Shown piece after piece: positions 17,520 through 57,230 of a DNA stretch of 64,000 nt. A program made the translations under genes and the position numbers. Origin of the DNA: Octopus vulgaris (lineage: Eukaryota); the NCBI GenBank assembly GCA_951406725.2, contig OX597814.1, positions 31,806,001 through 31,870,000 on the forward strand, in the 5' to 3' direction. Position 1 is the stretch's first letter. Every line of letters begins with the position of its first letter. A model generated the notes under the pieces. It ran no database searches, was not told the DNA's origin, and saw only the letters and a list, made by a program, of their open reading frames with translations.

Positions 17520-18100
17520 GGGTGGCAAGCTGGCAGAATCGTTAGCACGCCGGGCGAAATGTCTAACGGTATTTCGTCTGCTGTTACGTTCTGAGTTCGA
17601 ATTCCGCCGAGGTCGACTTTGCCTTTCATCCTTTCGGGGTCGATAAATTAAGTACCAGTTACACACTGGAGTCGATGTAATCGACTTAATACCTTTGTCT
17701 GTCCTTGTTTGTCCCCTCTATGTTTAGCCATTTGTGGGTAATAAAGAAATAGGTATTTCGTCTGCCGTTACATTCTGAGTTCAAATTCCGCCGAGGTCGA
17801 CTTTGCCTTTCATCCTTTCGGGGTCGATAAAATTAAGAACCAGTTACGCACTGGGATCGATATAATCGACTTAATCCGTTTGTCTGTCCTTGTTTTCCCC
17901 CTCTGTGTTTAGCCCCTTGTGGGTAGTAAAGAAATAGGTATTTCGTCTGCCGTTACATTCTGAGTTCAAATTTCGCAGAGGTCGACTTTGCCTTTCATCC
18001 TTTCAGGGTCGATAAATTAATTACCAGTTGCGTACTGGGGTCGATCTAATCGACTGGCCCCCTCCCAAAAAATGTCGGGCCTTGTGCCTAGAGTAGAATA
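17520..18100 (+). mobile_element. SINE family C: one head plus three tandem ~185 bp body units
   Basis: The unit GGTATTTCGTCTGC...AAAGAAATA repeats at ~17568, 17752 and 17937. Confidence 0.9.
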
Positions 18101-30809: not shown

Positions 30810-31279
30810 CCACTAGAGAAGAAAGTAACCATTTGACTTGAAAGGTGCAAAAAATAACGTGACTTCGCAATGCTGCTAACTTGGTTTTTCTGTTTGCTTT
30901 AGAGTATTTTCTTTTTTTCACTCATATTTCTTGAAATCTGGTAATAACTATTCATTGTATCTGACTTACATTAGCTCTAGGGTTATGAGAGCAATCAGAA
31001 TAACATAAACTTCTCTTAATTATTGCTCGTTCACTCCGTAGCATAAATAGTTCAGCAAAGAAAATATATTAAGCGCTTCTGGTTGGAGATCAATACCAAT
31101 AACTATTAAAATATATCCAAATACACAAGTATCGAGCACGCGTGATATATAGATCGAGTGTCATATACATATGAGACGTATTGGTATTTAGAAGATCCGA
31201 AGAGTGTCGGGTACTGCTAAGTAGGTGCAATGGCTAGACTGTAGTTAAACTCTTGGTATATATGCTGTCATATATATAT

Positions 31280-31620
31280 AGATTCAGTTGAATATGGTAC
31301 TTAAGTTAAAGGCACCAGAATTTAGTATGGTATTATCCATATAATTCAAAATGGGGTGTTTACAATCAAAATAAGCAACAAGGATATCCAGAAGTAATGA
31401 GGTACGATCGTTTCTTGCGACTCCATTCAATTGAACAATGCAAATATTACATCAGTTTTAAAGTGTAGAGCAATCTTCATATAAAATATAGAATTTAGTT
31501 AAATTCAAAGGATTGTATAGTTATTCTATCAAACAAAATCACAAAGAGGATAAATAGATAGACAAAGGACATGTTTCATCAACAATATTATAGTAGTATT
31601 TTGACCACTTTGAAAGTCCT
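31280..31620 (-). mobile_element. Non-coding (TA)n-anchored element with a degenerate hammerhead (31403-31480)
   Basis: Minus strand ATGAAGA-TTGC...GCAA-GAAA-CGATCG-TA. The segment downstream of the site is homologous to 55574-55672. Confidence 0.55.
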
Positions 31621-40200: not shown

Positions 40201-40733
40201 GTATGTATAGACGTCACACTTATTTCCCTCAGTATGCTTTGCTAACGAAGGCAGTGTCATTAGACTAATCCACAAGTTGATCAATCCAAGGGTATCTGAA
40301 TAATTTTATGAATTTCTGTCAGCCTACTCCCTCGCTTTCGACGTGTGTGTTTTATAAAAGTCATGATTTAGAGTTGTTCGACGATTTAGAGTCTATTTTC
40401 AGAATGCAGGAATAGTAAATTCTGTGCCCTTAATTATAATTGCATTTTATATTACTTTAAATCTCTCTTTCTCACTGAATATATAGGTCTCCTTTGCCGA
40501 ACTGCTAAGTTACAGGGACGTAAATACACCAACATCAGTTGGCAAGTGATGGTGGTGGTGAAGATGGCTGCAAACACAGACACACACATACATGAATATA
40601 TACAAATACACACACACACATAACATATATATATATATGCATATATATACATGCGTATATGTACATAAATACATCTATACGTAGCTGATCGACTTAAGCG
40701 GGGCAGGGCCGTTGTTTATTTATAATGCATTCT

Positions 40734-40779
40734 GGCCTGCTGATGAGTACGTAAGTATGAAATCACTGTGATACAGGTC
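40734..40779 (+). ncRNA. Type I hammerhead ribozyme, copy 1
   Basis: GGCCTG-CTGATGA-GTAC(GTAA)GTAT-GAAA-TCACTGTGA-TA^CAGGTC. Confidence 0.9.
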
Positions 40780-41213
40780 TATATTTTTTAAATGTCTTAC
40801 TTTGAAAAATTGCATTCGGTGGGATTAGTAATATTTTTGGTAGAAATGACTAATTGTCCCTCTTAGCGTTTGGCATGTATATATAATGCCTTCTGGCATG
40901 TATGTATAATGCCCTCTATATATAAATTAATATGTTCAATAAGAAATAATTATTTTCGAAATTTTTTCTCTTATGAGGTTTTTACGCTATCTACCTGACA
41001 ATTTCTTGTTAAGTTTTCCTTATTAAGTAGTTGTCCTTAATTGCTAAATTTTTATTCCGAAAAAACTTTTCCTCTCCCGAAATGCAATTCGTAAAAGTTT
41101 GCCATTTGACCGTATGTAATATATGTAAACTCACCCATGTGCTTCGATGATGTTGAACAGTTAGCTGATCGACTTAAGCGGGGCAGGGTCGTTGTTTATT
41201 TATAATGCATTCT

Positions 41214-41259
41214 GGCCTGCTGATGAGTACGTAAGTATGAAATCACTGTGATACAGGTC
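41214..41259 (+). ncRNA. Type I hammerhead ribozyme, copy 2
   Basis: Identical to copy 1, 480 bp downstream. Confidence 0.9.
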
Positions 41260-41475
41260 TATATTTTTTAAATGTCTTACTTTGAAAAATTGCATTCGGT
41301 GGGATTAGTAATATTTTTGGTAGAAATGACTAATTGTCCCTCTTAGCGTTTGGCATGTATATATAATGCCTTCTGGCATGTATGTATAATGCCCTCTATA
41401 TATAAATTTATATATATATATGCATATATATGCATATATATGTATGTATATATATATATATATATATATAAATAT

Positions 41476-50520: not shown

Positions 50521-50939
50521 ACTTAAATCAACACAAGTCTGGTTTTATAAGTTGTTCATGAATACACTAGAAGCACAATTTTATATATACTTCAGTTATT
50601 TTATTGGGATATTACTAATATTTTACTGGACTGCTAATTTGCGAGGACGTAAAGGAGACAATATCGGTTGTCGAACGGTGGTGGAAACGAACACAAACAC
50701 AAACCGTATACACTCGCACACACACGCGCGCGCATATTATGTACGATGGTCTTCCACATAGTTTCCGTCGACTAGGTTCATTCACAAAGCAATGATCATC
50801 CCGGGACTATTGGAACAGATACTTTCCAAAGGTGCCGCGCAATGGGAATGAACCCGAAACAACGTGATTACAGTGTGAACTTCTCAACCACAAAAGCATC
50901 TGTCAATGTTAATATAGAAACATATGCTGTTATGTTAAA

Positions 50940-51341
50940 GCGGCGAGCTGGCAGAAACGTTAGCACGCCGGGCGAAATGCTTAGCGGTATTTCGTCTGGC
51001 GCTACACTCTGAGTTCAAATTCCGCCGAGGTCGACTTTGCCTTTCATCCTTTAGGGTCGATTAAATAAGTACCAGTTACGCACTGGGGTCGATATAATTG
51101 ACTTAATCCGTTTGCCTGTCCTTCTTTGTCCCCTCTGTGTTTAGCCCCTTGTGGGTAATAAAGAAATAGGTATTTCGTCTGCCGCTAAACTCTGAGTTCA
51201 AATTCCGCCGAGGTTGACTTTACCTTTCATCCTTTCGGGGTCGATAAATAACGTACGAATCACGCACTGGGGTCGATGTAATCGATTTAATCCATTTGTT
51301 TGTCCCCTCTATGTTTAGCCCCTTGTGGGTAATAAAGAAAT
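50940..51341 (+). mobile_element. SINE family C with two tandem body units
   Basis: Junction AAAGAAATA|GGTATTTCGTCTGCCG at ~51168. Confidence 0.9.
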
Positions 51342-52107
51342 AATATGTTTCCGTAGAATTGCAGTTGTTATTTCTAGATGATTCAGAGAGTTCATAGAGG
51401 TACTTTCTGGTTGCCATTTTGTTATCCTGATTCCATTGTTATTTTTATTGTTTGCGTTCTGTAATTGTTTTTGTTCTTGTTGTTGCAAGCAATTACATTT
51501 ACTAATTTATCTTTTGAAAACGATTAATATTTTTGTAGATTATTTGTATTTATTTAATATTATAGTTATGAATATTACCATTGCTGTCGTTGTTCTTGTT
51601 GTTGGATTTTTAATATATAATTTACTTGTGATTGGGCTCGATGTTTTTCCTACCAGATTAGGGAGGTGAGTGTAATAGTTTTTCCTTCGACATTGAAACA
51701 TCATGGTAAATATCTCATTGCTTAACTGAATTCAATTACATATGAACAACGGTATGTGGGGAAATCTAAAAGCAAAATCTGGTCATCTATTTTAACCAAT
51801 TCAACAGTCATTAAATAAGAATTCAAGTGCAAACGTTAATATGATTTATTTTGAAAAGTGGAAATATGAATAGAAATAAGAAATCACATTTTGGTTCTAA
51901 GTTCTTCACGAAAATTGCTTTCTATTATTAAAATAGAAGTAGTTACTTGTAAAATATTGCCTGATTCTTCAACGCTTATTATCATTAAGCATTTGTATTT
52001 TAATACGAACACTCTCGTCTACTCTCCAATATTCGCTCATATACGCAAAAGTCTCAATGATGGAGTCATTTTTGCTCGTTCGACTTGCTAGAAATAATTG
52101 CAAAAAA

Positions 52108-52521
52108 GGCGGCGAACTGACAGAGACGTTAGCACGCCGGGCGAAATGGATAACGGTATTCCGTCTGCCGCTACGTTCTGAGTTCAAATTCCGCTGAGGT
52201 CGACTTTACCTTTCATCCATTCGGGGTCGATAAATTAAGTACCAGTTACGCACTAGGGTCGATGTAATTGATTTAATCCGTGTGTCTGTCCTTGTTTGTC
52301 CTCTCTGTGTTTAGCCCCTTGTGGGTAGTAAATAAATAAGTATTTCGTCTGCCGCTACGTTCTGAGTTCAAATTCCGCCAAGGTTGACTTTGCCTTTCAT
52401 CCTTTCGGGGTCGATAAAATAGCTACCAGTTATGCACTGGTTTCGATATAATCGACTTAATCCCTTTGACTGTCCTTTTTTGTCCCCTCTATGTTTAGCC
52501 CCTTGCGGGTAGTAAAGAAAT
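52108..52521 (+). mobile_element. SINE family C with two tandem body units
   Basis: Junction AAATAAATA|AGTATTTCGTCTGCCG at ~52338. Flanking repeat agaaataat(t/a)gca. Confidence 0.9.
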
Positions 52522-52947
52522 AAGAAATAATAGCATATTCTACCTCAGTCCAAACAGCACTGACTTGAATAAGAAGACCCATTAGTCATTTAAGTCCTAG
52601 ATATACAAAGAGTCACGAATGGGGAAATATTTCACCAGGTAACCTCGATCTAAGATGAGAAATGAGGAAACAACAAAACACACACAGAAGTGTATGATTA
52701 CACATACGCATACACACACGCATACACACACACAAAGAATATCAACGAAACGGAAAATCACACACATACGCAGAGAACATATGCATATAGATTAGCTGAA
52801 GGTATCGGCGTTATTACATTTCCATATTGGTTTTAGATATTAAACACTCATAGAAGGCAGTTTGTGTTTAAATTGGCAGGGTAACTGCAGGTCAAGAAAA
52901 ATAGGCCTACATACGTATATAGATACATAACTACACGCACACACACA

Positions 52948-53368: not shown

Positions 53369-53427
<59 letters not shown>

Positions 53428-53902
53428 AAAAATGAAGTTCGAAAATGCTGCTGTATTATACAATTTTTAATTTTTATATATACATTATAACATGTTTCAG
53501 TTCCTGAAATGAACCTTATCAAAAAAAGTTATATATAAAAAGAGACAGCTCATGCCGTCAAACACAAGAAATTCATTTATAATACACAACGGAGTCAGAC
53601 ATCTTAGAGTTCATGTATAGTTGATATATAGTTCATGTATAGTTGATATATAGTTTGAAGTATATGTTCAAAGTGTTCGATGCAGTGGCCTACGGTGGCG
53701 ATACGTATTCAATACAAAAAACAGATCAAAGTGGTGGAAAGCGGTCAATACAGAAGATTGATGTTTCCGAAAGAGCGAGGAATTCATTTTTACCTTAAGC
53801 AATTGTGATGACCCATGGTGGAAGTTCGCTGGGTGGTTCTAGTGATTTTTTGTGAAATGCTCGGTTTTATAATGCCTGTTAGGTGGTCAATCTAGCGTAG
53901 CG

Positions 53903-54236
53903 TGACGTCATCAATGTTTTGACCAATCGTTTCGTTAGGTGACTTTAATCAAGTGGAACGGGACGTCATCATTATTTTGACCAATCGCTGCATTATAACT
54001 CCCTCTTGTTTGTTTCCTGTCTTGACCAGTCGCTTCGTTAGTCAAGCATAGCGGGACGTCATCCAGATTCTGCCCAATCACGACTTATAGCTACATTAGA
54101 TCTGCCCCCTGTCTGTACTTGTTAGGTGACTATTCAAGCAGAAAAGGACGTCATCAATATTCTGACTAATGACTGTCCCCTGTTTGTATCCTGTCCATTC
54201 TAGCAGAGCTAGACGTCATCAACTTGTTGACCAATC
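53903..54236. promoter_or_regulatory. Array of five GACGTCATC-N10-CCAAT (CRE-like + CCAAT box) modules
   Basis: GACGTC at 53904, 53962, 54055, 54147 and 54212. CCAAT (once CTAAT) starts exactly 19 bp after each. Confidence 0.6.
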
Positions 54237-54702
54237 AGAATCGGGTCTGACCCTTAGCTGTATCGTATGTATCAGGGTCAGATTTGCACGAAAGAATTTT
54301 TTTCCCTTTTTTACTAAGGCATATTTCCGTCAGAGTGAGTGTCTGTTTGAAGTAGCGGCCGTGGTGAAATTTGGTTCTCCTTTTCGGAGGACTTATCTTT
54401 TGTTTTAGTATTCCTGGCCCAGGGTGTTTAAACTTGGTTATATATATATAACCAGGGTGTTTAAACTTGGTTATATATATATAACTAATGTACGATAAAA
54501 AATTTTTCGGGAAAAAAATTATATCAATGGCCAGCATATCAAAAAATACCTTTAAAGGTTAAATTTATAAATAATTTACAAGATAAGGGCAAAAGAAAAA
54601 TTCTAATGCCAAATATGCCGAAAAAAAGACTAAAATTGTCAATAACCATTATAATTTATGCGTCTCGAAACAAACCGATAGAAATTTCTAAAAAATTCGT
54701 TA

Positions 54703-54763
54703 TTACCGTATTGGTCCAATTTCGGGATTAATTCATAAGAAATTTTCCCCTCTTCATCGGCAA
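54703..54763 (-). ncRNA. Type I hammerhead motif (variant base at C3), inverted copy
   Basis: TTGCCG-ATGAAGA-GGGG...TCCC-GAAA-TTGGACCAA-TA^CGGTAA. Confidence 0.65.
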
Positions 54764-55321
54764 ATACGCGAGATATAAGTAAAAAACTTACTCATATCCA
54801 TGGAAAAAGCAAGCACTAAGTCCTGAGCAGACCTAAGTACCCCAAATATATTCAAAATAGAAAAATCTTCGGCACATCTCGAGACACGTGTGATTCGAAC
54901 TAGAAACAGAATAATGAATTTTTTAGAAATTTCTATCGGTTTGTTTCGAGACGCATAAATTATAATGGTTATTGACAATTTTTGTCTTTTTTCGGCTTAT
55001 TAGGCATTAGAATTTTTCTTTTGCACTTATCTTGTAAATTATTTATAAATTTGACCTTTAAAGGTATTTTTTGATATGCTGGCCATTGATAAAAAGTTTT
55101 TCTCCCGAAAAAAATTTTATCCTACATTAGTTATAAATTGAATAGTGTTCACTTCCGGATTCTCTCACACTGTGAAAGTTTCTAGTTCGAATCACACGTG
55201 TCTCGAAATGTGCCGAAGATTTTTCTATTTTTGATATATTTGGGGTACTTAGGTCTGCTCAGGACTTAGTGCTTGCTTTTTCCATTGGTATGAGTAAGTT
55301 TTTCACTTATATCTCGCGTAT

Positions 55322-55384
55322 TTGCCGTTGAAGAGGGGGAAACATTTCTTATGAATTAACCCCGAAATTGGACCAATACGGCAA
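55322..55384 (+). ncRNA. Type I hammerhead motif (variant base at C3)
   Basis: TTGCCG-TTGAAGA-GGGG...CCCC-GAAA-TTGGACCAA-TA^CGGCAA. Confidence 0.7.
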
Positions 55385-55508
55385 TAACGAATGTTTTAGA
55401 AATTTCTATCGGTTTGTTTCGAGATGCATAAATTATAATGGTTATTGACAATTTTTGTCTTTTTTTCGGCATATTTGGCGTTAGAATTTTTCTTTTGCCC
55501 TTATCTTG

Positions 55509-55542
<34 letters not shown>

Positions 55543-55556
55543 AGACATACATCAAG

Positions 55557-55590
55557 GATATCCAGAGGTAATGCATTACCTCTGGATATC
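55557..55590. repeat. Perfect 34 bp palindrome at the 5' end of a fragment (to 55672) of the 31280-31620 family
   Basis: GATATCCAGAGGTAATG|CATTACCTCTGGATATC. Confidence 0.9.
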
Positions 55591-57230
55591 TTTGTTGTTT
55601 ATTTTAAATTATATGGATAATACCATACAAAATTCTTGTGCCTCAACTTAAGTACCATATTCATCTGAATCTAAATTTTTTATACATACATACATATATA
55701 TACGCGTGGTTAGTTGGCAAAGAAGGGATATGACCAGCCCCAAAATAACAATATATATGTTGTGTGTGTGCGTGTGCTTCTGCGTGTTTGTGTGTTTGTG
55801 TGTTTGTGTGTGTGTGTGTGTGTGTGAGTGTGTGTGTGTGCGCGCGCGTAGACGGGAAATAGTGAGAAGTAATAATTGATTTGTGATGAAAGACAATTTA
55901 TTACAAGAATATATTTCATCAATCGTTGTGGTGTTAGTGAAACACAAAGGTAACATATTGCGCTATGGAATTGTATTTAGAATTATAGAGAGAAAAATTT
56001 CGCGTTCCGTATACTGAGTTTTGAAATCCACAAAACTCAGAGCATCATGATGTATATTACTTTCTAGACAGGAAAATATAAATAGATTTTTAAAGTTGTA
56101 TTGTTAGTATCAAGATGGAATAGTTTTTAATTGTGTTCCTTAGACTATAAAACAATTTGGTTTCGTTCACTATCCAGTAAGAAGCTGATTTATCAAAATA
56201 CTTCAAGTACCTTCAGTACGGAAGAAGTAAACCAAATTATGTCAACTGTTGCGTTTATTGGATTGATTTTGTGGATAAATTCATATGAGTGTTATCAATA
56301 AGTTTTTATTGTCTAATATACATATAAATTATTATAAATTTATTTTCATATAATAATACTATGAATTTATAGATTCAAATCACTTGAGCTGTATAAAGAA
56401 ACTTGAAACGTAAAATAGAAAAACGAAAATAAATGAAAAGAAAATGTTTCATGTCTATGCATATATTCCATATATCGCTTACAATTTTTCATGTTATTTT
56501 CTTATCGATTTAGTGTTTTAAAAGGATTTTCTGCCAAAACTTATTTTAGAATGCTACGTAGAAGTTGTCTTTTTTCAAATCTATAGTAAAATTACATTTG
56601 CATGCAAAACAGAATCCATTAAAATTTCGCATAAAACTATGCATTATTTTCGAAACATACATCATATCACCATGTTTTTTCTTCCAATCTCTCCTTTCCT
56701 TTCACACTCTTTATTTAAAAAGAATTTGTAAGCCATGGGCATATTTATGCATTAAGTATTTATTTAGTTAATAATATCCCAGACAAAGATGTTTTAATTG
56801 GAAGAATCGAATTATCAACAGGAGTTTAAACTATAATAATTCAATATGTTATTGTTGTCGTATTTGTGGTACACTATTGATTCTTTTTTACATTCCAGTT
56901 TATAAGAAACTTTGAGAATATGTTAAAAACACGTAAAGTCCACAGAAGAGAAATAGTTAAAAGAAGAGGGTTGGCGAGAGTACGAATATAAAGGATAGAA
57001 ATAAAAAATAATACTAAAGGATATCATTTAGTAAATTTAATCTGAATAGATATCACGAAATGGCGTTTGACATTTCCATAGATAACATTTATATTTCATC
57101 TTGCTTCTCGGTAATGGTCTTTTTTCCTCAGATATATATGTGTGTGTGTGTGTGTGTGTGGGTGTGTATGTATATATATGTGTGTATATGTATTTGCGCA
57201 TAAATATATATACACATATGTATATATGTA

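Follow-up and report, generated by a model that had tools for sequence, protein, structure and literature searches.

Two copies of a hammerhead-bearing repeat lie head to head in a 64,000-nucleotide stretch of the Octopus vulgaris genome (the whole stretch analyzed, here called the window), and one of them breaks off a few bases from its predicted ribozyme cut. Does self-cleavage set the ends of such insertions, and how is the inverted copy made? A sequence-only reading of the locus had described an inverted copy and about 1.3 forward units of ~473 bp, with both outer ends in (TA)n and a hammerhead in each arm, and this anatomy was confirmed by self-alignment and a hammerhead scan (Table 1). 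The arms (54477-54907 and 54910-55527) pair in inverted orientation with 93-98% identity, and the direct-repeat spacing at the locus is 473-474. Each arm holds one hammerhead (in the forward arm of the layout TTGCCG/U-UGAAGA/helix II/GAAA/TTGGACCAA/UA^CGGCAA, in the inverted arm the copy with A at position 3), with a helix I of 6 bp, a helix II of 4 bp, and a near-palindromic helix III. As that reading had it, the forward arm starts ~4 nt past the equivalent of the predicted cut, at position +5, after the dinucleotide AG. At the gathering threshold, Rfam returned zero matches within the window. The 33-bp duplication at the left junction is not a target-site duplication of the head-to-head insertion.

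Table 1. Features at and beside the head-to-head locus (window coordinates)
Feature	Position	Strand	Remarks
3' UTR/pLTR fragment of autonomous Penelope-like family	53423..54438	(-)	5'-truncated, own short end in (TA)n; separate insertion adjoining the head-to-head pair
Perfect 33-bp tandem duplication with (TA)n	54419..54484		Left junction, Penelope fragment / (TA)n run
Inverted arm	54480..54907	(-)	~429 nt; starts at unit position 272, crosses the hammerhead, and finishes in (TA)n at the tailed 3' end (long, "L")
Type I hammerhead, inverted arm	54703..54763	(-)	Predicted cut after 54709; position 3 = A (family: C)
Head-to-head junction	54908..54909	no strand	2 bases (AG) assigned to neither arm
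Forward arm	54910..55511	(+)	1.27 units; starts at position +5 and finishes in (TA)n at the tail-less 3' end (short, "S")
Tail region, between S and L end points	55040..55140	(+)	In the forward arm's first unit; TAAATT at both end points
Type I hammerhead, forward arm	55322..55384	(+)	Predicted cut after 55378; position 3 = U (family: C)
(TA)n target run, right side	55511..55539	no strand	

The window locus is an ordinary decayed copy of a multicopy repeat, here called the focal family. A first look at the 2.8-Gb genome gave 2,801 candidates, and two short motifs had 344 and 469 exact matches. We fetched 215 loci, which reduced to 177 unique loci with 278 arms. The majority unit is 468 nt long (range, 468 to 473 nt), and median arm identity is 96%. 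With a GC content of 32%, the unit falls within the composition expected of retrozymes (GC below 45-50%, unit of 150-450 bp), and its length lies slightly above their range. The longest stop-free stretch is 62 aa in the sense and 80 aa in the antisense direction. Folded as a circle, the unit is strongly self-paired (z = -6.9 versus 40 shuffles). Two subfamilies differ by two bases in helix I, and the six pairs are kept in both. Assembled contigs from four runs guessed to be RNA covered all 30 bins and crossed the cut site; they are uninformative on expression, strand, and circularity.

Position 3 of the catalytic core had been read as U in one window copy and A in the other, and both hammerheads bear this out. 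Among 169 full hammerheads of the family, 162 have C at this position, so that the family core is canonical, and the complete core is intact in 127 of 169. Therefore, U3 and A3 in the window are private mutations that followed insertion. Because C3 pairs with G8 in the hammerhead core (PMC11167929), both window ribozymes are probably impaired. The known functional U3-A8 variant described in PMC4209133 was considered for the window U3 and rejected, as position 8 is still G and C3 is the family base. Position 3 was mutated independently in the two window hammerheads (54757 and 55328) and is substituted in 5 of 169 copies overall; the double mutation is likely due to chance.

The start of the forward arm so near the predicted cut had led the sequence-only reading to infer that the template's 5' end was made by the ribozyme, in which case the forward arm would have been copied to the end of a cleaved linear RNA and 5' ends would mark the cleavage site. 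Besides the window arm at +5, eight other arms among the 278 start at +2 to +9. The distribution of 5' ends was evaluated with arms recruited through an exact motif immediately downstream of the cut, by counting where each stops in the upstream direction (176 arms; the window, loci found only by the full-length query, and five extra loci were excluded). No arm stops at +1. Stops at +1 to +5 number 5 versus 4.35 expected (P = 0.44), and those at +1 to +10 number 6 versus 8.96 expected. A smaller set of 94 arms likewise shows no excess at the cut, and S arms alone give 4 versus 2.39 expected (P = 0.22). Breakpoints thus show no excess at the site, the outcome that the sequence-only reading had named as refuting its inference, and the predicted cut was run through in 157 of 162 passages. 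Therefore, we conclude that the template RNA was uncleaved, re-ligated, or circular at this position. Across the full sample, 193 of 278 arms cross predicted cut sites, 175 of them one and 18, in tandem units, two; the longest arm is ~835 nt. In PMC11167929, furthermore, uncleaved RNA was the main substrate of a Penelope protein. As a general rule, ribozyme-set 5' ends are already refuted, and we regard them as an extremely improbable explanation of these insertions. A minority contribution of a few percent is possible; apart from this, the window break near the cut is a coincidence. In a sister family with a 480-bp unit, four apparent ends at +1 proved to be query-edge artifacts. Five 5' ends of that family lie at unit position 92-93.

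The 3' ends fall at two fixed places. The S end, at about +131 to +143, terminates 119 arms, and the L end, at about +228, terminates 125; together they account for 244 of 278 arms, and the distance between them, about 90 nt, is the tail. The other 34 arms end elsewhere, several via internal deletions. TA-type runs adjoin 221 of the 244 L or S ends, as scored over an interval that includes the last few aligned bases. No scorable second arm was present in 88 of the 177 loci, and 89 are head to head. After exclusion of 24 head-to-head loci with an unclassifiable end, the remaining 65 comprise 64 L+S pairs, 1 L+L pair, and no S+S pair. The window locus is L+S. The Penelope-type origin proposed in the sequence-only reading is supported by the inverted, 5'-truncated copy, the one-sided tail in 64 of 65 pairs, and the (TA)n target.

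The same pairing was found in two other families. Among the 38 loci of the 480-bp sister family, selected as the best full-unit matches, there are 28 pairs, and all 27 that could be classified are L+S. In an autonomous Penelope-like family that encodes a 781-aa protein, 8 of 8 pairs are L+S, and single ends are mostly S. Over the three families, the L+S rule is followed by 99 of 100 classifiable pairs. The spacing of the two ends differs by family (about 90 nt in the focal family, 122 nt in the sister, and 38 nt in the autonomous family), and a YAAATW motif is present at each of the six. The sister unit has exactly two occurrences and the 260-nt end region of the autonomous family also two, all of them at an end; of the four occurrences in the focal unit, three are at the main ends and the fourth has two TA-flanked ends beside it. 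The motif was chosen after the ends had been seen, and it is AT rich.

The relation between the two arms of a locus was assessed in the 74 of 89 pairs with enough overlap. Arms of one locus differ by 4.2%, compared to 7.0% for random arms. Subfamily sites agree within a locus in 398 of 442 comparisons (control, 13,902 of 23,861, or 58%), rare variants are common to both arms in 136 of 563 (control, 400 of 28,511, or 1.4%), and the helix I type matches in 20 of 20. Because subfamily sites and rare variants agree far above the control, we conclude that the two arms come from one source. Two RNAs of one source locus, or gene conversion between arms, could also be the cause of this sharing.

Shared variants also fit a model of single priming, in which the cDNA, or alternatively an antisense RNA, primes itself after folding back, and the endonuclease creates the second end by cutting the intermediate DNA at the other motif (models in PMC3846280 and PMC8557442). 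Near-symmetric junctions, some of them at internal palindromes, are in excess (13 of 64 versus 5.8, P = 0.002), and ATT, for which PMC11167929 reported a cutting preference, is contained in the complement of YAAATW. The geometry of the arms, however, makes this an unlikely explanation for the family as a whole. In 24 of 64 pairs, including the window locus, the S arm reaches further 5' than its L partner; these S arms are therefore not copies of the L cDNA, and at the window locus the arms cannot have been copied from each other in either direction. Nesting of the S arm within the L arm is at chance (40 of 64 versus 36.9 by permutation), 5' ends of paired arms are uncorrelated (rho = -0.05), and 70 of 89 junctions are asymmetric. 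The excess of near-symmetric junctions suggests that a minority of loci may be fold-backs. Overlap at the junction averages 3.0 nt (39 junctions) versus 1.6 nt simulated (125 of 150; P = 8e-5), and filler bases are present at 19 of 62 junctions. Template switching and twin priming had both been offered as the origin of the inversion; L+S pairing, same-source arms, and nesting at chance support the latter.

Which enzyme would carry this out was approached through neighboring families. The fragment adjoining the window locus belongs to the autonomous family, which has intact, young copies encoding a 781-aa protein with RT and GIY-YIG domains elsewhere in the genome (loci L181-L192 and L194). The Pfam match of this protein to RVT_1 is just under the cut-off, and GIY-YIG is also matched. 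It has Neptune/Nematis motifs (DKG, RT core, CX2-5CXXC linker, and a C-terminal two-cysteine GIY-YIG; at 155, 425, 647, and 687). The hammerhead of the family is a minimal U3-A8 variant. In full-length copies, the 781-aa ORF is preceded by another, of 479 stop-free codons, that overlaps its start (L184:367-1807, L192, and L194). At L182:5137-5591, a full-length autonomous element has a head-to-head focal copy lying directly in the (TA)n of its 3' end. The sister repeat occupies 40682-41413 in the window (hammerheads at 40773 and 41253); it is very young, with many copies 98-100% identical, and forms arrays of up to about 8 units.

Insertion into (TA)n, the two-end rule, and YAAATW are common to the focal and autonomous families. 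When end regions were compared, that of the sister resembled that of the autonomous family (0 of 200 shuffles as good), while the focal unit matched neither significantly (42 of 200 shuffles as good for the sister and 86 of 200 for the autonomous family). Because the end region of the focal unit is no closer to that of the autonomous family than shuffled sequence is, we infer rather than identify the mobilizing family, which would be a Neptune-type element of the Octopus genome. No parent element of the focal unit was found in a GIY-YIG search that scored 150 of 6,136 candidates; among 50 GIY-YIG loci, the focal unit was joined as a pLTR in none, with one nested insertion only. With two Penelope proteins as queries, no RT plus GIY-YIG ORF joined to the focal unit was seen in 126 focal loci, and enrichment of the focal family beside the autonomous element was not evident (1 of 126 loci).

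Penelope elements commonly show truncated pLTR ends placed head to head (PMC8557442), and different families pile up in the same (TA)n runs, as in the window and at L182. The repeat might accordingly be read as a pLTR end left by truncation of an autonomous Penelope element, or the two arms as separate insertions into one (TA)n run. Against a pLTR end, what lies upstream of a unit is another unit, no shared body sequence was seen, and none of the five Penelope protein matches, spread over 4 of 126 loci, was seen as a continuation of an arm. Against separate insertions, the arms are joined without an intervening TA run in nearly all pairs and have their subfamily in common. Both forms of this explanation are very unlikely.

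The explanation that we favor, and consider probable, is that the focal repeat is a non-autonomous Penelope-type retrozyme for which an RT-endonuclease would have cut (TA)n and primed both sides at two internal start sites of an uncleaved or circular RNA. A tandem copy would be transcribed, and the hammerheads may release a monomer that is then circularized, as for other retrozymes (PMC7229834); we infer both the self-cleavage and the circular or multimeric template. The Penelope protein, a predicted dimer in PMC11167929, would cut both strands of the (TA)n run. Each target end would prime at one of the two internal sites, with each of two protein copies engaging one YAAATW, and the cDNAs would stop at unrelated points before being joined via short microhomology or filler bases. 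Two arms would result, head to head, one ending long and the other short, and the cut site would be read through freely. The role of the ribozyme would be in making the template RNA, not in setting the 5' end of the insertion. We are evenly divided on a stricter version in which two-site priming is obligatory. One dimer would hold one RNA, possibly circular, at two YAAATW sites, with each target strand using a different site and the tail equal to the distance between them. Dissimilar retrozymes would then parasitize the enzyme by keeping both motifs at a flexible spacing (38, about 90, and 122 nt).

In L1 twin priming, both nicked target ends prime on the template and an inversion results; the position of the second priming varies, and there is no overlap between the arms. 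The proposed mechanism resembles it in that both target ends prime on the template to give an inversion, but in the focal repeat both sites are fixed and the arms overlap. A closer parallel for the start sites is the in vitro work on a Penelope protein (PAc Poseidon, PMC11167929), which cuts and extends both strands and for which two internal start sites define the tail, ribozyme cleavage is dispensable for insertion, and targets are AT rich, as here. That study, which did not deal with inverted insertions, saw no start-site difference between the two strands, whereas here the two sides differ in 64 of 65 pairs.

Insertions of endonuclease-bearing Penelope-like elements have an inverted copy and a TA bias, with a tail of 30-40 bp that is often confined to one end (PMC8557442 and PMC3846280). 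These sources explain the inverted copies and tail by self-priming or by resolution through the endonuclease and regard the mechanism as unsettled; circular templates were proposed in PMC4209133. The focal repeat shares the inverted, 5'-truncated, head-to-head copy, the one-end tail, and the (TA)n bias. It differs in having no ORF and a tail of ~90 nt, and the one-sidedness, described there as frequent, is near strict and was counted in three families. Retrozymes have been described as non-autonomous Penelope derivatives (PMC7229834; Li et al., bioRxiv 10.64898/2026.07.22.740005). Like the metazoan non-LTR retrozymes of these two sources (Cervera and de la Pena 2020 for the former), the focal family has a non-coding, low-GC tandem unit with a type I hammerhead and a short palindromic helix III, is self-paired as a circle, and coexists with autonomous Penelope elements. 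Its unit of 468-473 nt differs from their RNAs of 170-400 nt, and its copies are short and often head to head; inverted insertions and two fixed ends are absent from the passages on those retrozymes.

Published work thus already covers inverted copies, the tail on one side, and the pair of start sites. Strict L+S pairing, same-source arms, and a common motif were not found in the literature searched, nor was a two-site priming model for inverted Penelope insertions; supplements and older subscription papers lay outside that search. PMC8557442 treats the origin of inverted copies and one-sided tails in Penelope-like elements as an open question. The three families, all from a single genome, yield a near-exceptionless rule, a candidate start-site motif, and intact young ORFs for testing, and they argue against the ribozyme setting insertion ends. 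They also offer evidence from insertion signatures, independent of phylogeny, for retrozyme mobilization by Penelope machinery. The value lies in the family-level rule, by which an open mechanistic question becomes directly testable.

The sequence-only reading had ranked the focal repeat as a third hammerhead family of the window. Window scans gave only one other convincing family, the 480-bp sister. A size constraint, also suggested in that reading, would need more families than the two at 468-480 nt. A 184-185-bp repeat family, tandem and dispersed (17568-18055, 50937-51343, and 52156-52524), gave no match in the hammerhead scans. A short imperfect palindrome with 46-nt arms (55528-55619) directly follows the right (TA)n run and has a relative at 31276-31352. 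Elsewhere in the genome, a further hammerhead family (CTGATGA...GAAA CGATCG TA) is also arranged head to head (L159:131 and 532; L189:554).
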